DNA from: Candidatus Niyogibacteria bacterium
Lineage (GTDB): Bacteria > Patescibacteriota > Minisyncoccia > HO2-45-28
Assembly: GCA_016181935.1 (NCBI GenBank)
Contig: JACOYI010000004.1
Coordinates: forward strand, 5,292 to 69,291
Reading direction: 5' to 3'
Length of the DNA stretch: 64,000 bases
How positions within the stretch are numbered: the first letter of the stretch is position 1; each line of letters opens with the position of its first letter. Made by a program: the position numbers and the translations under genes. This document shows positions 3,170 to 61,709 of the stretch, in pieces. Below the pieces are notes generated by a model. That model made no database searches. It was not told the origin of the DNA and saw only the letters and a program-made list of their open reading frames with translations.

Positions 3170-4062
3170 ATCGTCATCCCTCGTAAGCGCGCGATTCGTT
3201 CCTGAATCGGTGGGTGCGTCATGAACAATTTCGCTACGGTAGTATGCGTCTTTCCGTGGGGATCCGCAAGCCACAGGTGCGCCGTGGCGTTGTTGGCTCG
3301 GCGCATCGGTTGAGTGTACGCTCCGATTTTCTCGAGCGCCGAGGCAAGCCCGTCGGGATAGCGCGTAAGCAACGCGCCAGACGCATCGGCCAAAAATTCG
3401 CGCTTACGCGAAATGGCGAGCTGGATGAGCATCGCCGCAATGGGCGCCAAAATGGATAACGCGATGCCGATAACAAGCATGATCGCGCCGCCGCGTCCGC
3501 TGTCGCGATCCCCGCCGCGAAACCCTCCCCAGAGCATCGAGCGCATGAACATGTCGGACAAAAGCGCGATGAACCCCACCAGAACTACCGCCACGGTCGA
3601 GACCAGCATGTCGCGATTGCCGATGTGGGAGAGTTCGTGGGCCAAAACCCCCTCGAGTTCGGTGCGATTCAGGCGCTCCAAAAGCCCGCGCGTTACGGCT
3701 ACTACGCCATGCTCGGCATTGCGCCCCGTCGCGAACGCATTGGGCGCGGCGTCATCCACGATGTATACGCGGGGCATCGGGAGACCGGCGGTGATGGCAA
3801 GATTTTCAACGACATTGTAGAGCTCCGGCGCCTGTGATTTTTGAATGGGTTTGGCCCCCGTCGCCGCCAAAACAATTTTGTCCGAATACCAATAGCTCAC
3901 CACATTCATGATGATGCTGAACAAAACCGCAAAAATCAGAATGGACGGGTTGCCATAGATGCGCGAAAACACCCACCCGATGCCGATGACCACGATGAAA
4001 AACAGGGTGAAAAGCGCCCATGTCCTGCGGATATTGGAATCGCGGTGCGTGTATAAGTCCAT
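3166..4062 (-). CDS. htpX: M48 family zinc metalloprotease HtpX
   Basis: 298 aa; HELSHIGNRD (HEXXH) motif, N-terminal TM helices. Confidence 0.9.
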   Translation of the reverse strand: MDLYTHRDSNIRRTWALFTLFFIVVIGIGWVFSRIYGNPSILIFAVLFSIIMNVVSYWYSDKIVLAATGAKPIQKSQAPELYNVVENLAITAGLPMPRVYIVDDAAPNAFATGRNAEHGVVAVTRGLLERLNRTELEGVLAHELSHIGNRDMLVSTVAVVLVGFIALLSDMFMRSMLWGGFRGGDRDSGRGGAIMLVIGIALSILAPIAAMLIQLAISRKREFLADASGALLTRYPDGLASALEKIGAYTQPMRRANNATAHLWLADPHGKTHTTVAKLFMTHPPIQERIARLRGMTI

Positions 4063-4405: not shown

Positions 4406-4963
4406 CTAAAACTTCACCTTGACCGGCTCGCGCTCGGCCGCCGAGTCGATCTGGAAGAATTTTTCTTTCGAGAATTTAAAAAGCGAGGCAATGAAATTCG
4501 CGGGGAACGAATCCACCATCGTGTTCAACGCCATCACCGTGGAATTGTAGAACCGGCGCGCCGCCTGTATCTTGTTCTCCGTATCCGCAAGTTCGCGCTG
4601 AAGTTCGACAAAGTTGGTATTCGCCTTAAGGTCGGGATAATTTTCGGAGACCGCAAAGAGCGATTTTAACGCCGAGGTCAGCATATTGTCCTTGTCCGCG
4701 TGGTCGAGCGCCGAACCCGATGCGCCCATCGCTTCGGTCCGCGCGCGCGTCACATTTTCGAGCACGCTTTTTTCGTGCGCCATGTATCCTTTCACCGCCT
4801 CGATGAGATTCGGAATGAGGTCGAACCGCCGCTTGAGTTGCACATCAATATCCGAGAGCGCCTCGTGCGAACGGAACCGGAGCGTCACAAAACGGTTGTA
4901 CGCGTAGACGGCCCAAAGAACCGCGAGAACAACGACCCCTAGTACGAACCAAAGTATTTGCAT
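4406..4963 (-). CDS. lemA: LemA family protein
   Basis: 185 aa; N-terminal TM then LemA-like sequence; LemA-HtpX pairing is common. Confidence 0.8.
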   Translation of the reverse strand: MQILWFVLGVVVLAVLWAVYAYNRFVTLRFRSHEALSDIDVQLKRRFDLIPNLIEAVKGYMAHEKSVLENVTRARTEAMGASGSALDHADKDNMLTSALKSLFAVSENYPDLKANTNFVELQRELADTENKIQAARRFYNSTVMALNTMVDSFPANFIASLFKFSKEKFFQIDSAAEREPVKVKF

Positions 4964-5003
4964 GTATTCAGACTACCACTCGAGCAAATAAAAACAAGAG
5001 CCG

Positions 5004-5453
5004 CTAATGCGACTCTTGCGTATTTCTGCCTTCGGAAAACGGGAGCAGAGTGCCAACCAACAGCAACTCCGCCGCAAAGGACGTGAAAAGAACCAGCAGA
5101 AGCTGAAGGAATACGATCAAGGCCTGCGCGGGCCAACTTGCCGAATCAGAAAACTCGGGCACAATGGCCGGACTCATGACCATCGCGAACCAGCCCAAAA
5201 TCACCACACTTACCATAAAAACGAGCGTATGCGACCATCCCACGATGCCGTTCGGCATCGAAATCCTGATGTTGCAGTCTTCGTCGAGTTTTTTCGTGAA
5301 CTTTTTCTGGAACACCACGAATTTGATCGCGCCGCATACGGCGCCGATGAGCAAAAGCATCGAAACCACCTGCACGCCCCGCAACGCAAGAACCGCGAAG
5401 AAAAAGATACTGGCGAAGAACAAGGCGAACATGAACGCCGGATACCGCTCCAT
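5004..5453 (-). CDS. hypothetical membrane protein
   Basis: 149 aa, 4 predicted TM segments. Confidence 0.5.
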   Translation of the reverse strand: MERYPAFMFALFFASIFFFAVLALRGVQVVSMLLLIGAVCGAIKFVVFQKKFTKKLDEDCNIRISMPNGIVGWSHTLVFMVSVVILGWFAMVMSPAIVPEFSDSASWPAQALIVFLQLLLVLFTSFAAELLLVGTLLPFSEGRNTQESH

Positions 5454-30472: not shown

Positions 30473-30553
30473 AGCGCCCGACGGGAATTGAACCCGTGAC
30501 CCCCGATCCAACACGCGTGCCGGATGGTGCTCTACCAGCTGAGCTACGGACGC
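30473..30553 (-). tRNA. tRNA-like gene with aberrant anticodon arm (possible pseudogene or non-canonical tRNA)
   Basis: Canonical acceptor GCGTCCG/CGGGCGC, D-arm GCTCAGCTGGTAGAGC, T-arm ACGGG-TTCAATT-CCCGT; anticodon region replaced by 8-bp stem ATCCGGCA/TGTTGGAT with 4-nt loop CGCG; 81 nt. Confidence 0.4.
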
Positions 30554-30967: not shown

Positions 30968-31039
30968 AGCGCTTGGCCGGATTCGAACCGACGCTCGGGG
31001 TTTTGCAGACCCCCGCCTTACCAGCTTGGCTACAAGCGC
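30968..31039 (-). tRNA. tRNA-Cys (anticodon GCA)
   Basis: Acceptor GCGCTTG/CAAGCGC, anticodon stem GGGGT/ACCCC with loop CTGCAAA, T-loop TTCGAAT. Confidence 0.85.
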
Positions 31040-31736: not shown

Positions 31737-32449
31737 GCATTTCTCAACAATTACTTGCTGTATGGACTATACCATCATCCCCGATTTCTCGGGGCGACCG
31801 ACGTGTTAGCAATTCGTTTCTGAATCACTCTGCCGCTCCGCCAGCTGGCGAACGCGACAAGTCTCTACGGGGTCAATGTACGTTTCTTCCGCTTTTTTGA
31901 ATAATTCAATTCGCGGAAGGAATCTATCATTTTCATCAAAACCTTAAAGTCGTTTGCCTTCTCGACTTTTTGCTTTTGATCGATAATTTTGAACATCAGC
32001 TCAACCTGTTTGCGTTTTAATATCACAAAAGGTCGAATCGATATGAGGAATTTTTTGATATTATCGATCCGATTGATCGTATACTCAAGAATTCCGTCGT
32101 TGCGATCCCTGATATGACCGAGACCGATCAGGGCACACAACTCCTCGAACTTACTGCGGTCCTTCGCGGATTGAAACAGCACAATATAGAGAGCGACCTG
32201 ATATCCGTACCGATAATCGGCATTCGGCTTAAGCCGCGCGTAAATACTGCCGTCCCCATCCAAAAAACCCGCTAAATAAGCTCTTCGTATCGACGAAAGT
32301 GATGATTTCATACACGACTTCCCTCGGTATTATCCTAACACACGACAGGTTGTTTTTGTAGTGTTAGGACTTCACCGATATGAGTCGGTTTTTCATGCGC
32401 AATTGCTCGCGCATGCCGCCGTGTTTGATGTCCTCGGTTCAAGTATTTT
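31737..32449 (-). mobile_element. 23S rRNA intron 1 (putative group I) at the E. coli L2593-equivalent site
   Basis: Exon homology to E. coli breaks between ..GGGTTCAAACCGTC and GTAAGACAGGTTGGTC.. (E. coli GAACGTC|GTGAGACAG); 713-nt insert containing a LAGLIDADG ORF. Confidence 0.7.
31865..32311 (-). CDS. LAGLIDADG homing endonuclease (intron-encoded)
   Basis: 148 aa; LAGFLDGDGS motif; AT-rich; inside 23S. Confidence 0.85.
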   Translation of the reverse strand: MKSSLSSIRRAYLAGFLDGDGSIYARLKPNADYRYGYQVALYIVLFQSAKDRSKFEELCALIGLGHIRDRNDGILEYTINRIDNIKKFLISIRPFVILKRKQVELMFKIIDQKQKVEKANDFKVLMKMIDSFRELNYSKKRKKRTLTP

Positions 32450-33083
32450 GACGGTTTGAACCCAGCTCGCGTACCTTTTTAATTGGCGAACAGCCAAACC
32501 CTTGGGAGCTTCTCCACCCCCAGGATAAGGTGAGCCGACATCGAGGTGCCGAACACCGCCGTCGCTATGGACGCTTGGGCGGTACCAGCCTGTTATCCCC
32601 GGAGTAACTTTTATCCGTTGAGCTTCCACGGCTTCTAATGCCCATGGTCGGATCACTATGTTCTGCTTTCGCACCTGCTTGACATGTCCGTCTCGCAGTT
32701 AAGCTGGTATGTGGCATTGCCCTATCGGTGCGATTTCCATCCGCACCTAACCAACCTTAATAAACTCCTCCATTACTTTTTAGGAGGAAAGTGCCCCACT
32801 TAAACTGCCCACCAGATACTGTTCCCGTCCCGTTTGACGGGACAGGTTAGATTTTACAACGCTCAAGATGGGTATTTCACGGGTGGCTCCATTCCGGCCG
32901 AAACCAAAACTTCAAAGCCTCCCCACTATGCTACGCATGAGAATCGTAAAGCCAATATCAAGTTGCAGTAAAGCTTCCGGGGTCTTTTCGTCTAACTGCA
33001 GGTAACCGGCATCTTCACCGGTATTGTATTTTCACCGGGCGCTTCTCCGAGACAGTCCTCCAGTCGTTACGCCTTTCGTGCGC

Positions 33084-33793
<710 letters not shown>

Positions 33794-33850
33794 ACCTTAG
33801 AACGATTATAGTTATCGCTGACATTGACGAGGGCTTCGGCCGGTCAGCCA

Positions 33851-33928
33851 CCCTGGAGGCTGGAAACCGGAAGCTAGTGTCTGGAATTTCTCCAGCATCT
33901 AGCATTCTAGCCTCTAGTCTCCAGAGTG
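33851..33928. repeat. CTGGAA/CTAGA-rich hairpin insertion in 23S (IVS-like), copy R1
   Basis: ccctggaggctggaaaccggaagctagtgtctggaatttctccagcatctagcattctagcctctagtctccagag, inserted next to conserved GGTTAACGTTGGCG (domain IV). Confidence 0.7.
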
Positions 33929-34530
33929 ACCGCCAACGTTAACCTTCTCGCATTGGTCAGGCGTCACCCCCTATACATCCTCTTACGAGTTCGCAGGGAG
34001 CTGTGTTTTTGATAAACAGTCGCCAGATTTGCCGAGTTCCTTGGAGAAGTCTCACCCGTTCGCCTTCGTCTTCTCGACGAGTCCACCTGTGTCGGTTTCC
34101 GGTACGGTTTCCGCATCGCGAGCCCTTAGAAGCTTTTCTTGGAAACGCGCTTTGCCCTATCCCCCGCCAAAGGCGGGGTTTCTCAAAAACTTGGATCCGC
34201 CTTGCGGCCGCTCGCCGGATTTTCCTAGCGAGCATCCTTATTTTTGAAACACAAATCCAATAACATGCAGGGCATACTGCATTCCGTCCCTTCGTCGGAA
34301 CGATACGGAAGTTGCCGAATATTAACGGCATGTCCATCAGCTGCGGCTTTCGCCATTGCCTTAGGACCGACTAACCCTTGGCTGATCATCGTTGCCAAGG
34401 AAACCTTGGACTTTCGGCGGTTTGGGATCTCACCAAACTTGTGGTTACTTGTGCCAACATTCTCACTTCCCAGCGCTCCATCCACGTCTCACGACGGGAC
34501 TTCATCGCCCTGGGAACGCTCTCCTACCAC

Positions 34531-34610
34531 TCTAGAAGCTAGAGGCTAGATACTGGATTGCTAGAAATTTCCAGCTTTCCAGCTTCCAGCGTCTAGCTTC
34601 CAAAGTTCTA
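34531..34610. repeat. IVS-like hairpin insertion in 23S, copy R2
   Basis: tctagaagctagaggctagatactggattgctagaaatttccagctttccagcttccagcgtctagcttccaaag. Confidence 0.7.
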
Positions 34611-34672
34611 ATCTTCGGTACTGTGCTTAGCCCCGATTATCTTCGGCGCGAAATCTCTAAACGAGTGAGCTG

Positions 34673-34715
<43 letters not shown>

Positions 34716-35113
34716 CGCTATCAGAGAAATCTCACCACCTTACTTGCACTTAGCACAGATTTAGGGACCTTAAATGTAGATGCGGGCTGTTTCCCTTTCG
34801 ACCGGTGGAGCTTAGCCCCCACGGTCTAACTGCCTCGATACCCCTCCGGTATTCGGAGTTTGGTAGGCATGACGAGATTGCTCCCTTTTCACGCCTTCCA
34901 GTAGCTCTACCCCCGGAAGTACTTCGAGACGCCAGCCCAAAAGCTGTTTCGGAGAGAACCAGCTATTACCAAATTCGATTAGCTTTTCACTCCTTGCCAC
35001 AACTCATCCGATAGTATTGCACGGCTAACCAGTTCGGGCCTCCCCCCGCATTTCTGCGGGGTTCACCCTGGTCATGGCAAGCTCATCTGGTTTCGGGTCT
35101 TACACGCACCACT

Positions 35114-35192
35114 TTCTAGAATCCGGAAGCTAGAAGCTGGAAACTGGAAAATTCCGGCCTCCAGCCTCTAGCTGTCTGGAAAATCTAGAGTA
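35114..35192. repeat. IVS-like hairpin insertion in 23S, copy R3
   Basis: ttctagaatccggaagctagaagctggaaactggaaaattccggcctccagcctctagctgtctggaaaatctagag; flanked by GGGAAACCGAGTG and GACCCGAAACC conserved blocks. Confidence 0.7.
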
Positions 35193-35296
35193 CGCGCTAT
35201 TCACACTCGGTTTCCCTTTGGATGCGTCCTGACGGACTTATCCGAGCGGTGCATATAAACTCGTTGGCTCATTCTTCAATAGGCACCCCGTCACAC

Positions 35297-35376
35297 CCTG
35301 GAGACTGGAAACTGGATTACCGGAAGCTGGAAATTTTCCAGCTTCCAGAGTTTCTAGTCTCTAGTCTCCAGAGTGC
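35297..35376. repeat. IVS-like hairpin insertion in 23S, copy R4
   Basis: cctggagactggaaactggattaccggaagctggaaattttccagcttccagagtttctagtctctagtctccagag; contains perfect 12-bp stem GGAAGCTGGAAA/TTTCCAGCTTCC. Confidence 0.7.
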
Positions 35377-36211
35377 TCCGAGTCCTTGTAAGCGCACGGT
35401 TTCAGGTACTATTTCATCGCCCTCTCGGGCTGCTTTTCACCTTTCCCTCACGGTACTGGTTCACTATCGATCTTGGAGAATATTTAGCCTTGGGAGTCAG
35501 TCCTCCCGAATTCCCCCGACGATTTCGTTTGTCGAGGTACTCACGTAACGATCCCGAGAGCGTAAGGCCGTTTTCGGTTACAGGGCTATTACCTGCTCTC
35601 TCCTTTGAGATTGCTCTCAAAACGGACCGCACGTATAACCTCCTGCACCTTGAAAACAAGGTGCAGGATTTGGGCTCTTCCCGTTTCGCTCGCCGCTACT
35701 TAGGGAATGAGCGAAATAATTCTTAAAGAGCGTAACTATCCGCCCTCAAAGAATGATTTCGCGAATTGTTTCTTTTCCTCCGCTTACTGAGATGTTTCAC
35801 TTCAGCGGGTTGGCAGCCCTGTCATACGACAGGGCTTTTTCGGTTTTACCGAAAAAGGTTTCCCCATTCGGACATCCCCGGATCAAAGGTTGCTAGACAC
35901 CTCCCCGAGGCGTATCGCCGTCACGCCGCGTCCTTCATCGCTTCTCCAAGTCAAGGCATCCACCGTGCGCTCTTATGTCTTATCCCGATGTTTCAACGTC
36001 TTAATCCTTCGACTGCGCTCAGGATTATCCTGAGTATGGCCGAAGGATAACTTTTTACCTGCTCTATGAAATTTTCAAAGTTCTCATCGCACTATGACCA
36101 ATCAAAAACCATCCGCCAGTCGGCGGACGGTTTGAAGAACAAACCTAAATCGTCTCTCCGCCGTTTCGCATATGACTGATGTGATTGGTTATCATATTTC
36201 GATGTAATTCG

Positions 36212-59298: not shown

Positions 59299-59825
59299 AC
59301 ATCATATCCTTTATTCGCCGCTATCCCGATGAAAACACCGAGAAGCGCCCCGCCCGCGATGTCGCTCGGCCAGTGGACGCCCGCAAAAATGCGCGCGACC
59401 CCCATGATGATCGAGGCCGCAAAAAACCAGATGCCGAGCTTCCGATGAAAATGAAAAAGGACCGTGGAAAGCGCGAAGAAAAAAATCGCGTGTCCCGACG
59501 GGAACGAATTCCAATACTCCTCTAAGGACTTTGCGATCAGCACGGAACTGTCCGGAAACAAAACGAACGGCCGTGCGCGCTCCGTGAAAAAAACGATCGC
59601 GGGCTTGACGACGAATCGTGCGACAACAGCGGCGCCAAGCCCCCACGCGACCATCGTCCGATTGCGCGCCCGTTCGGATAACGGCCGCCACAAAAATACG
59701 AGCACCAACAAAACAAGAATATATTGGCTGTACGCGGCCACAAAAATACCCGCGGCATCCATGAGGCGCGATGTGCCGGCAAAATTATTCAGGAAATGGA
59801 ACAAAGCCGCATCCAGCGCCCGCAT
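59265..59825 (-). CDS. PAP2 family phosphatase
   Basis: 186 aa; KxxxxxxRP ... PSGH ... R....GVHWPSD motifs. Confidence 0.8.
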   Translation of the reverse strand: MRALDAALFHFLNNFAGTSRLMDAAGIFVAAYSQYILVLLVLVFLWRPLSERARNRTMVAWGLGAAVVARFVVKPAIVFFTERARPFVLFPDSSVLIAKSLEEYWNSFPSGHAIFFFALSTVLFHFHRKLGIWFFAASIIMGVARIFAGVHWPSDIAGGALLGVFIGIAANKGYDVWQKRRLSKHE

Positions 59826-59930
59826 AATTCTCTTACTCTAAAGCCAAAACCCGCCGCGCTCAAGTGCGGCGGGTTTTCACATAGAACCATTGGGTGAAGG
59901 CAACCCTAGTCGCCGTTCATCCCCTTGTCC

Positions 59931-60194
59931 TTATCGTTTCGAGAAGTAGTTGTAGAACCAGCCCCACGCGTACCCGATCAGCCATCCGAATACGGCGAGT
60001 GCGACCAGCATCCCCACAAAATCCCCGAACGCGATGGACTTGGGAACCATTTTTGCGATATCGGCCCCAAAAAACTGCGCGTTGAACAGGAATTTGAACG
60101 CCTCCGGCATCGCCGTCCACAGCACATAAAATACGATGTAGACAGCGGCGGTGATGGCGGCCAACGAATTGGCAAGTGCGATTTTATTGAACAT
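59931..60194 (-). CDS. small membrane protein
   Basis: 87 aa, two TM helices. Confidence 0.45.
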   Translation of the reverse strand: MFNKIALANSLAAITAAVYIVFYVLWTAMPEAFKFLFNAQFFGADIAKMVPKSIAFGDFVGMLVALAVFGWLIGYAWGWFYNYFSKR

Positions 60195-60318
60195 AGACCG
60201 CGGTATTTCTATTTCTAATAAATTCTAATAAAAGAGACCTTTTTTTAATTCTTTTTCAGTATACCACATCAACCGGCCGCCGCCACCCGATGGTGGGGAT
60301 AAATAGCGGATCGAAGTG

Positions 60319-60389
60319 CTGCGGGGCTTGGATTCGAACCAAAATACCATGCTTCAGAGGCATGTGTCCTACCGTTAGACGACCCCGCA
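60319..60389 (-). tRNA. tRNA-Gln (anticodon CTG)
   Basis: U1-A72 acceptor TGCGGGG/CCCCGCA, anticodon stem CATGC/GCATG with loop CTCTGAA, T-loop TTCGAAT. Confidence 0.8.
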
Positions 60390-60710
60390 ATATGTTCTTA
60401 TTCTATGGCAATTGGCACACACCAAATCGCATTTATCAATTTCTGCCAAAATCTTATCTTTGGAATAACTATGCACATTGATCATCTGATTAATACCCGC
60501 CATCTTTGTTTTTCTGTCTCTATGATCAAAATCCATTACATAGGATGGATATTGCATTCCGCAATCCGTACAGGGTTTTTGCTTTAAAGCATTCACAAAC
60601 TTAATCAAATTCTCTCTTCTTTTGATGTTTTTCTGCCTATAAAGCTGCCTATTTCTCAAATAGTATCTTTTGTGGCATTCCCTTCTTTTGACAATATCCT
60701 TATATGGCAC
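60375..60710 (-). CDS. HNH endonuclease
   Basis: 111 aa; CTDCG...MDFDH...CANCH zinc-finger HNH motif; about 35% GC; 3' end overlaps tRNA-Gln by 15 nt. Confidence 0.7.
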   Translation of the reverse strand: MPYKDIVKRRECHKRYYLRNRQLYRQKNIKRRENLIKFVNALKQKPCTDCGMQYPSYVMDFDHRDRKTKMAGINQMINVHSYSKDKILAEIDKCDLVCANCHRIRTYCGVV

Positions 60711-60750
60711 TATTTAACTTTATAGCATATGAACCATGTTATCAAATTCA

Positions 60751-60783
60751 GAGTCCGCTATCCTACCGTTAGATGACCCGGCA
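60751..60783 (-). repeat. duplicated 5' fragment of tRNA-Gln (direct repeat bounding the HNH insert)
   Basis: tcctaccgttagatgacccggca vs tRNA tcctaccgttagacgaccccgca (21/23). Confidence 0.65.
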
Positions 60784-60794
60784 ATGATAAACCC

Positions 60795-61709
60795 TTATAC
60801 CTTAAGATACCGCCGGATGGCAATGACGGACGAGAGTGTTCCCAACAGAATGCCGCAAGAAAGCAAAATGAGAAAGATCTGGAAAAAATGCGCGAGATAA
60901 TAATGAAAGAGATTCAATCCCCCGAAAAATTTTGCCGCCTGCGGCCCGAACCAGAATGTCAGCGGATAAAAAAGGACCGTGGTGATGAATGCCGCAAAGA
61001 TCCCATAAAGCGCCCCGCTCACCACAAAAGGTCCGCGCACATAGGCGGATGACGCGCCAACGACTTTCATGACCGAGATCTCGTCCCGGGCGACATAGAT
61101 CGCGAGCCGAATGGTGTTCAGCACCACAAGAACCGCGATCGCGGCAAGCGCTATCGTGATCCCGAGGCCGACCGCGCGCCCGGCCGAAAGCACTTTCGAC
61201 AGCCGTTCGATCACCACCTGATTTTGAAAATAATTGACCTTATCAATGATCGCCTGATAGACGCTCGATTCCAGAAATCGCGCGATCACTTCGTATTGTT
61301 CCGGACTTTCGGCGCGGATATTCAAACTTGCCTGCAACGGGTTATCCGCAAGCTCATCGAGCGATTGGGTGATCAGCGCATTGCCCGCATGGCGCGCCCG
61401 GAATTTGGCAAGCGCGTCATCGCGCGAAACATACGCAATAGACCTCACTTGAGGCAATTGGGCGATCGCGGCGTTCGCGGCAAGAATATCCTGTTCCGCC
61501 GCATCCGTCCGAAAATAGACGCTGATATCCACCTGCCCCTCGATCTGGGAAAGCGCCGAGGTCAGCAAAACATTCGAGAACAGGAGCGAGCCGATGACAA
61601 AAACCGCGAGCGTCATGACAAGCGTCGCGGTCAGCGACACCCAGCCGTTCCGCCAAAAACTCATGAACCCGCCTCTGATGATCCGCTGGATAGTGACTCC
61701 GGTTGCCAT
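60795..61709 (-). CDS. ftsX: cell division ABC transporter permease FtsX
   Basis: 304 aa; 4 TM with large periplasmic loop. Confidence 0.85.
   Translation of the reverse strand: MATGVTIQRIIRGGFMSFWRNGWVSLTATLVMTLAVFVIGSLLFSNVLLTSALSQIEGQVDISVYFRTDAAEQDILAANAAIAQLPQVRSIAYVSRDDALAKFRARHAGNALITQSLDELADNPLQASLNIRAESPEQYEVIARFLESSVYQAIIDKVNYFQNQVVIERLSKVLSAGRAVGLGITIALAAIAVLVVLNTIRLAIYVARDEISVMKVVGASSAYVRGPFVVSGALYGIFAAFITTVLFYPLTFWFGPQAAKFFGGLNLFHYYLAHFFQIFLILLSCGILLGTLSSVIAIRRYLKV

Follow-up and report, generated by a model that had tools for sequence, protein, structure and literature searches.

SegB, a free-standing GIY-YIG homing endonuclease encoded within the tRNA gene cluster of bacteriophage T4, has its target in the conserved T-psi-C motif, and its homing carries the nuclease gene and the adjacent tRNA genes into the recipient genome, thereby displacing the markers of the recipient tRNA region (PMC2330249). 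The locus described here, located in the window (that is, the whole 64-kb stretch of DNA that was analyzed), resembles the SegB system in three respects, namely a free-standing nuclease gene among tRNA genes, a presumed target in tRNA-gene DNA, and the dragging along of tRNA genes. It differs from that system in that SegB belongs to the GIY-YIG rather than the HNH class, is not associated with a tRNA stub, and is encoded by an ORF that does not read into a tRNA. Furthermore, SegB acts between co-infecting phages sharing long flanking homology, whereas the window case is chromosomal, belongs to a bacterium of the candidate phyla radiation (CPR), and involves a tRNA that is probably single-copy and essential.

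HNH genes are described, in those passages of PMC5966550 that deal with coding sequences in tRNA arrays (citing Pope et al. 2014), as the most widespread coding sequences in the tRNA arrays of mycobacteria, their plasmids, and actinophages, and as suspected reshufflers of the tRNA repertoire. Phage homologues of the window HNH protein are likewise encoded beside tRNA genes. The reports on mycobacterial and actinophage arrays are, however, concerned with co-occurrence only, and the papers searched present no unit composed of a stub, a nuclease gene, and a tRNA gene, no replacement of a resident tRNA, no empty-site comparison, and no overlap between an ORF and a tRNA.

Bacterial tRNA group I introns sit in the anticodon loop, and the endonuclease of the Synechocystis tRNA-fMet intron is an example of an intron-encoded homing endonuclease in a bacterial tRNA gene. 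Such elements resemble the window locus in that an endonuclease has a tRNA gene as its target, in or close to the anticodon loop, and in that the insertion interrupts the gene partway along. The rescue of the interrupted gene differs: intron-containing tRNAs are rescued by RNA splicing, whereas the window element contains no intron and its target is rescued by a whole new tRNA gene. Group I introns have been reviewed elsewhere (PMC3984707).

Integrase-dependent islands and prophages in tRNA genes, from which tRNA gene fragments usually stem, offer another comparison, in that the element carries tRNA sequence that preserves an intact tRNA and a partial tRNA marks its other end. These islands nevertheless depend on a site-specific recombinase, are bounded by att repeats that are identical copies of the tRNA 3′ part, and extend over kilobases, whereas the window element has no recombinase, a non-identical 5′ stub, and an insert of 0.4 kb. 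In the sections of PMC9897764 that discuss their origin, tRNA gene fragments are ascribed to integrases and CRISPR (with Williams 2002 as cited there), and endonucleases are not mentioned. A literature search, of incomplete coverage, returned no description of stub-nuclease-tRNA cassettes, of chromosomal tRNA replacement in CPR bacteria, or of ORFs terminating inside tRNAs.

The locus lies on the minus strand of the window, between ftsX and a DUF5676 gene, and is made up of the following features, given in minus-strand order.

60795..61709, minus strand: ftsX (Pfam FtsX_ECD and FtsX), the upstream flank and the left limit of the replaced segment
60747..60783, minus strand: 5′ stub corresponding to nt 1–37 of a native-lineage tRNA-Gln(CUG), from the 5′ strand of the acceptor stem to the end of the anticodon loop
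60711..60746, minus strand: cassette spacer of 36 nt with promoter-like hexamers found by a promoter scan, the putative promoter
60375..60710, minus strand: HNH endonuclease ORF of 111 aa, with a GTG start and a TAA stop at 60377..60375
60375..60389, minus strand: overlap between the ORF and the tRNA, read from the sequence as the codons for C-G-V-V plus the stop codon, the latter being tRNA nt 13–15
60318..60389, minus strand: intact tRNA-Gln(CUG), probably cassette-borne (ARAGORN and Rfam, 58.7 bits)
59931..60194, minus strand: DUF5676 gene (Pfam DUF5676), the downstream flank

Read in this way, the unit begins with a promoter-like spacer, continues with an HNH ORF of 111 aa that has no stop codon to itself, and closes with an entire tRNA-Gln gene, whose first nucleotides supply the end of the ORF. 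The 3′ end of the ORF runs through the codons ACA TAT and then TGC GGG GTC GTC TAA, the last five being nt 1–15 of the tRNA. A first-pass annotation of this DNA had noted a 111-aa HNH gene of about 35% GC overlapping the 5′ region of tRNA-Gln, and this description is borne out, with the GC content of the ORF being 0.357 and four codons and the stop occupying tRNA nt 1–15. Over the element as a whole, the GC content drops to 0.345, compared with about 0.55 in the flanks. The spacer contains TTGATA at 60745..60740 and, as the second hexamer, either TAAAGT at 60722..60717 or TGn-TATAAA at 60727..60719, with the HNH start codon following about 8 nt past the candidate second hexamer; a block of the form TTGAyA...TAtAAt...ATG is kept at the same place in the related loci L001–L009 and L086–L098. 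This spacer block may act as a promoter.

When the region was compared by blastn with the full 64 kb of the window, the stub paired with the intact tRNA (E = 5e-5, 39 nt, 82% identity), with 30 of 37 positions matching between the stub and nt 1–37 of the adjacent intact tRNA. The inner end of the stub is the exact 3′ end of the anticodon loop (CUCUGAA), and 357 nt separate the stub from the intact tRNA. The repeat that the first-pass annotation had reported, a 23-nt near-copy of the tRNA about 360 nt upstream, is therefore statistically supported, but its length is 37 nt rather than 23 nt. The two copies differ at several places: in the D-stem, the stub has A10-U25 where the intact tRNA has G10-C25, a compensatory change, and further differences are found in an anticodon-stem strand and at position 4 (C4 in the stub, G4 in the tRNA). 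The compensatory change implies that the stub derives from another functional tRNA-Gln and not from a decayed copy of its neighbor. A native counterpart of the stub was found in the relative L253, which has an intact, HNH-free tRNA-Gln(CUG) directly after ftsX; that tRNA agrees with the stub at each of its first 37 nt (37/37), and the agreement extends to the following base. In addition, the first 23 nt of the stub are identical to those of the stub in a sister genome, L081. These alignments indicate that the stub is the leftover of a former resident tRNA-Gln gene, and not a duplicate of the present tRNA. Accordingly, the earlier view that the 5′ half had been duplicated stands as regards the part of the tRNA concerned, but not as regards duplication. 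That the leftover piece is the 5′ part follows from the position of the cassette upstream of its own tRNA. A TCCGC motif 10 nt 3′ of the intact tRNA was considered as a remnant of the native gene, namely its missing 3′ anticodon-stem strand, and was rejected because no T-arm or acceptor strand follows it.

The window belongs to a Candidatus Niyogibacteria genome, and its FtsX is 100% identical to P0121. Empty sites, in the form of a plain tRNA-Gln after ftsX without an HNH gene, occur in five relatives, whose FtsX proteins are 75% (L253), 78% (L251), 70% (L252), and 69% (both L082 and L083) identical to that of the window, such that the presence and absence of the element can be compared at an identifiable target. 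The empty-site comparison, which had been proposed along with the first-pass annotation, thus goes against a single arrangement shared by all relatives. Taken with the identity of the stub to the L253 gene, the empty sites mean that the resident gene was broken after nt 37/38 and that everything 3′ of the break was replaced. As far as these alignments go, insertion into and replacement of the resident tRNA gene after ftsX at nt 37/38, with the 5′ part left behind as a dead stub, has been shown.

The sister genome L081, with an FtsX 90% identical to that of the window, presents a third state of the same site. Its flanks match the window with 85% DNA identity as far as position 60796 and again from 60195 (blastn), with the interval between being unlike; by eye, the match is restored at TTTATCCCCACC, about 15 nt beyond the 3′ end of the intact tRNA. 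The L081 interval contains the same stub, cut at nt 23 (TGCCGGGTCATCTAACGGTAGGA), then a LAGLIDADG gene, and then another intact tRNA-Gln(CUG), which is 79% identical to that of the window. The endonuclease is encoded by a 232-aa LAGLIDADG_3 ORF (34.1 bits against a cutoff of 22.5) and has more than 1,000 LAGLIDADG homologues. Three further LAGLIDADG loci with DNA (L168, L169, and L170, of which L168 and L169 share gene context and one is assigned to Zambryskibacteria) consist of tRNA-Gln nt 1–24, TGnTATAAT, a LAGLIDADG ORF, and an intact tRNA-Gln, and lie in other gene contexts. From these layouts, the LAGLIDADG and HNH families, which are mutually unrelated, appear to share the cassette design by convergence.

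The intact tRNA of the window resembles HNH-linked tRNAs from elsewhere more than it does native tRNAs of its own lineage. It is identical at 69 of 72 positions (96%) to the HNH-linked tRNA of L255, a locus with flanks of 37% GC and unrelated neighboring genes, and is 88–92% identical to the HNH-linked tRNAs of L003 (92%), L086, and L002. Identity to the native L253 tRNA is 82%, and to the native tRNAs of other relatives 75–85%. Co-conversion of a flanking marker is therefore seen at this locus, over a short signal of 72 nt, and the intact tRNA, the one now serving the cell, was probably brought in with the cassette. The anticodon loop of the cassette tRNA is the same as that in the presumed target, and no substitution was found that consistently separates HNH-linked from HNH-free tRNAs and could confer resistance.

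The same unit recurs widely. Between the window and L001–L006 and L086–L098, DNA similarity of 73–83% is confined to positions 60318 to about 60786, with unrelated flanks; it spans the interval from the 3′ end of the tRNA to the 5′ end of the stub and goes no further, defining a unit of about 470 bp. In all of these loci, the tRNA-like sequence of the stub ends after nt 38 and is followed by the promoter-like block, and the same unit boundaries were found in at least 12 distinct genomes. A search for other copies of the HNH gene, also suggested at the outset, yielded more than 1,100 homologues, spanning CPR bacteria, Acidobacteriota, Actinomycetota, Planctomycetota, and one archaeon, with the unit itself recurrent in other CPR bacteria. 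Dozens of homologues with 60–86% identity are exactly 111 aa long and end in ...RTYC(G/R/P)(V/I)V, a C-terminus from which it follows that their ORFs also read into tRNA-Gln. L001–L003 share the prfB-ftsE-ftsX neighborhood with the window, and their HNH proteins are 81–85% identical to that of the window, compared with only 44–64% for FtsX, FtsE, and PrfB. Across hosts with a flank GC content of 0.32–0.52, the GC content of the HNH gene is 0.27–0.39. In L254, the HNH ORF has a GTG start and the cassette adjoins a second intact tRNA-Gln, showing that replacement is not the sole outcome. Homologues of 64–83 aa (P0080, P0088, and others) were considered as decayed copies; the two inspected, at L254 and L255, turned out to be full-length ORFs miscalled by gene finders.

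The tie to tRNA genes extends over the family. With adjacency defined as a tRNA gene no more than 150 nt downstream or 300 nt upstream, 134 of the 160 cellular homologue loci have an adjacent tRNA, and different HNH sub-clades pair with different tRNAs, including Gln-CTG, Arg-TCG, Phe-GAA, Arg-ACG, Trp, Met, and others. Where the tRNA lies downstream, the ORF mostly terminates within it, overlapping it by either 14 nt (stop at nt 13–15) or 9 nt (stop at U8-A9-G10); the 14-nt form was observed at 23 tRNA-Gln(CTG) loci, and both lengths occur with other tRNA species. Of 102 distinct loci, 21 have a statistically detectable stub. Among the 5′ stubs, the inner ends are clustered at nt 35–45, about 36–40 nt ahead of the start codon, and the Arg-ACG clade shows a mirrored arrangement, with the intact tRNA first, then the ORF, and then a 3′ stub beginning at nt 38–54.

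With respect to the protein, the HNH ORF matches PHROG 3106 (1.1e-26) and PHROG 2255 (2e-23), both named 'HNH endonuclease', whereas Pfam and NCBIfam gave no match even at E = 10, and a profile search of PDB sequences gave only chance zinc-ribbon matches. An AlphaFold2 model (pLDDT 89.4) predicts a helical hairpin at the N-terminus and, after it, a beta-beta-alpha core, in the order strand 59–63, helices, strand 94–98, and helix 99–108, consistent with membership in the beta-beta-alpha-metal fold. A Foldseek search of the model against BFVD, a collection of predicted viral structures, returned 50 matches at E ≤ 1e-3, mostly annotated as HNH endonucleases, the best being a phage HNH endonuclease (E = 7e-9, TM 0.82, both structures being predicted). 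Matches to solved structures are weak (E 0.5–5), though the top ones are HNH proteins. Among 56 homologues, C47, C50, C98, C101, D60, D62, N100, and H102 are invariant and H63 is kept in at least 90%, and both CxxC pairs, the D-H motif, and the N-x-H motif (N-C-H) are all present in the window protein. From its PHROG matches, conserved residues, predicted fold, and the pairwise dN/dS of 0.05–0.14 among HNH copies, the window protein looks like a working nuclease.

Overall, the element is probably a free-standing homing endonuclease cassette specialized on the tRNA-Gln(CUG) gene and carrying a replacement tRNA. Its nuclease ORF lies outside any intron or intein, with no ribozyme present and the ORF placed between the stub and the intact tRNA. 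The suggestion of a free-standing, homing-type HNH gene, one of those offered in the first-pass annotation, is the one that the empty sites in relatives and the 37/37 identity of the stub to the native L253 tRNA favor. From the fixed junction at nt 37/38, we infer that the nuclease cleaves cassette-free tRNA-Gln and thereby drives homing.

In the proposed mechanism, the nuclease would cut or nick a cassette-free tRNA-Gln gene near the 3′ side of the anticodon loop, and the broken left end (native nt 1–38) would pair with the stub of a donor cassette. Repair synthesis, of the type known from synthesis-dependent strand annealing, would then extend through the spacer, the HNH gene, and the donor tRNA, and the new strand would rejoin within the tRNA or at its end. 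Priming of the native left end on the donor stub would account for the combination of a native stub with a donor-like tRNA. The right-side arm of the break (tRNA nt 39–72) is short, and, given a tRNA of donor-like appearance over its full length, the right junction would lie at the very end of the tRNA or have been formed without homology. The carried replacement tRNA would let the element enter an essential gene without an intron or intein. The tRNA would probably be transcribed from the cassette promoter, and an RNase P cut at the 5′ end of the tRNA would leave the nuclease mRNA without its stop codon, an effect that might hold the level of the nuclease low.

A different reading is that the HNH gene has been domesticated and is passed on vertically as a host gene that is co-transcribed with tRNA-Gln and is useful to the cell, for example, in DNA repair, defense, or maintenance of the tRNA locus, with its patchy distribution reflecting repeated loss. 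Pairwise dN/dS among the HNH copies is 0.05–0.14, indicative of strong purifying selection, and dS is saturated (>1.2), as expected of long persistence; the precise conservation of the ORF/tRNA junction in dozens of homologues points in the same direction. The saturated dS values do mean that the copies are old and that their high protein identity owes as much to selection as to recent transfer, and the argument for transfer consequently rests on GC3 and the empty sites. On both of these counts, however, domestication fares poorly: the GC3 of the HNH gene is 0.405, compared with 0.62–0.73 in the neighboring genes (0.25 lower), and five relatives lack the gene while the sister genome has a LAGLIDADG gene in its place. 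Moreover, the stub means that the insertion destroyed an earlier tRNA gene, and a near-identical tRNA is linked to HNH in the unrelated L255 locus, where the HNH protein is of full length but has changes at three otherwise invariant positions (D60G, D62N, and C94Y); these substitutions would fit a decaying selfish gene. Domestication is thus considered unlikely.

Just as improbable is a single capture, by illegitimate recombination, of a module of nuclease and tRNA of the type found in phage or plasmid tRNA clusters, with the nuclease being inert in its spread and the stub being an accidental scar. Phage homologues (about 45% identity) do adjoin tRNA genes in Streptomyces phages, an adjacent tRNA was found in 25 of 80 viral loci, and HNH genes are the commonest coding sequences of mycobacterial tRNA arrays in the passages devoted to them (PMC5966550). 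A single accident would nevertheless hardly account for junctions at tRNA nt 38 and tRNA nt 1 that recur in many genomes with differing flanks, or for the same design in an unrelated endonuclease family that has its own fixed junction at nt 24. In IMG/VR, furthermore, the best match to the Gln-type nuclease is only 50% identical, which speaks against such a capture and leaves the homing cassette, too, without a viral vector in that collection.

Far less plausible still is the remnant of an integrase-mediated island or prophage in tRNA-Gln that has lost its integrase and cargo, although att sites are classically recognized by just such directly repeated tRNA sequence on either side of foreign, low-GC DNA. 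The repeat here is the 5′ part of the tRNA with its inner end in the anticodon loop, the copies are only 357 nt apart, and they differ from each other (30/37) and derive from different tRNAs, whereas att repeats would be identical. The absence of an integrase, already remarked in the first-pass annotation, was also confirmed: no integrase or recombinase gene lies among the neighbors (encoding FtsX, FtsE, PrfB, DUF5676, PAP2, and a GT2 glycosyltransferase, that is, housekeeping functions), the HNH gene is the sole ORF between the two tRNA copies, and no recombinase gene was found in the window or in any related locus inspected. The companion idea of a minimal or degraded tRNA-targeted integrative element is not supported, since larger islands that decayed independently would not be expected to leave a unit of about 470 bp with the same two boundaries, identical across 12 or more distinct genomes. 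Finally, a degenerate intron (group I or other) with an endonuclease ORF in the anticodon loop of tRNA-Gln, as might be suggested by the end of the stub in the usual seat of bacterial tRNA group I introns and by LAGLIDADG ORFs in and beside the 23S rRNA of the window, can be set aside as very improbable, given that a permissive Rfam search (E ≤ 10) of 59800..61200 found no intron, ribozyme, or other RNA family in the element, that the downstream tRNA is complete and contiguous, and that the stub is unable to pair with the 3′ half of the tRNA (a C:C mismatch in the acceptor stem, with GCGGA facing GCAUG in the anticodon stem).

Returning to the homing cassette, a broader proposal can be offered tentatively, as possible rather than probable: that bringing along a substitute for the target is a third route of homing endonucleases into essential genes, besides introns and inteins, with HNH nucleases, each clade of which keeps to one tRNA species, and LAGLIDADG nucleases having converged on stub-promoter-nuclease-tRNA cassettes that overwrite resident tRNAs, leading to repeated horizontal exchange of tRNA genes in small genomes, and with the end of the ORF inside the tRNA coupling expression to RNase P. 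If the mechanism holds, a selfish nuclease can colonize an essential gene by supplying a substitute for it, with no need of an intron or intein. A stop codon placed within the tRNA also hints that nuclease dosage is tied to processing by RNase P. These cassettes would also be a third source of tRNA gene fragments beside integrases and CRISPR, the two given in the relevant sections of PMC9897764. The family comprises many small nucleases (about 110 aa), each seemingly adapted to another conserved stretch of tRNA-gene DNA, which makes them possible tools. For the reduced genomes of CPR bacteria, the finding would mean that even core tRNA genes turn over horizontally, as in the two sister genomes compared here, which have flanks of 85% identity and very different tRNA-Gln genes between them.

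In the genome carrying locus L254, one of the loci at which HNH homologues were found, the HNH cassette lies beside a second, intact tRNA-Gln gene:

L254 1381..1452: intact tRNA-Gln(CTG), the HNH cassette's own
L254 1592..1663: intact tRNA-Gln(CTG), the other gene, 140 nt later

These two genes differ from each other, being identical at 52 of 72 positions. The L254 genome has gained the HNH cassette and lost no other tRNA-Gln gene.

The stubs, that is, the 5′ parts of former resident tRNA-Gln genes left upstream of the HNH ORF, are split in four loci (L001, L004, L095, and L098) by a palindromic insert (CCTGCC...GGCAGG) at tRNA nt 10/11. This insert was found to be 18 nt long in L001 and ~77 nt long in the other three.

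L001 ~3545..3585: stub with palindromic insert

Extra sequence was also observed at the tRNA-Gln locus of relatives. In L082, a relative with an empty site, the tRNA-Gln 3′ end is repeated over 20 nt (GAATCCTAGCCCGGCAGCCA) ~290 nt past the intact tRNA-Gln (region ~4535..4853), with an inverted copy of the T-arm of the same tRNA also present and the segment between the two being GC-rich and structured-looking; this repeat region may represent a further small element associated with that tRNA-Gln. In the sister genome (L081), ~690 additional nt (4416..5110) separate ftsX from the stub, and contain the following features, the ORF being without a match in Pfam or PHROG:

L081 4416-4433 and 4558-4575: long inverted repeat
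L081 4609..4983, opposite strand: Cys-rich ORF, 124 aa

Within the window itself, the 23S rRNA gene is interrupted, and two tRNA-Cys calls, separated by 413 nt, were obtained:

30473..30553, minus strand: tRNA-Cys(GCA)
30968..31039, minus strand: tRNA-Cys(GCA)
31865..32311, minus strand: second LAGLIDADG_1 ORF (44 bits), between the 23S and 5S genes
32374..35985, minus strand: 23S rRNA gene, 3,612 nt versus 2,925 nt for the model
33200..33685, minus strand: LAGLIDADG_1 ORF (81 bits), inside the 23S rRNA gene

The length of the 23S rRNA gene relative to the model corresponds to an insertion of ~690 nt. The insertion and the LAGLIDADG_1 ORFs together are an instance of a pattern already known in CPR bacteria, that of homing endonucleases accompanying rRNA introns. 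The downstream tRNA-Cys (48.9 bits; 83 nt as called by ARAGORN) shows an anticodon arm of 21 nt rather than 13 nt, and could be either a tRNA carrying a small insertion or a pseudogene. The spacer between the two calls is GC-rich and gave no match in Rfam.

With respect to the wider HNH family, homologues were found within dense tRNA arrays in an actinomycetotal locus (L019) and in one from the archaeon Nitrosotalea (L021), with 8–17 tRNA genes lying within 1.5–1.8 kb either side of the HNH gene. Through these array-borne homologues, the HNH family is connected with the tRNA array units that have been described for mycobacteria.
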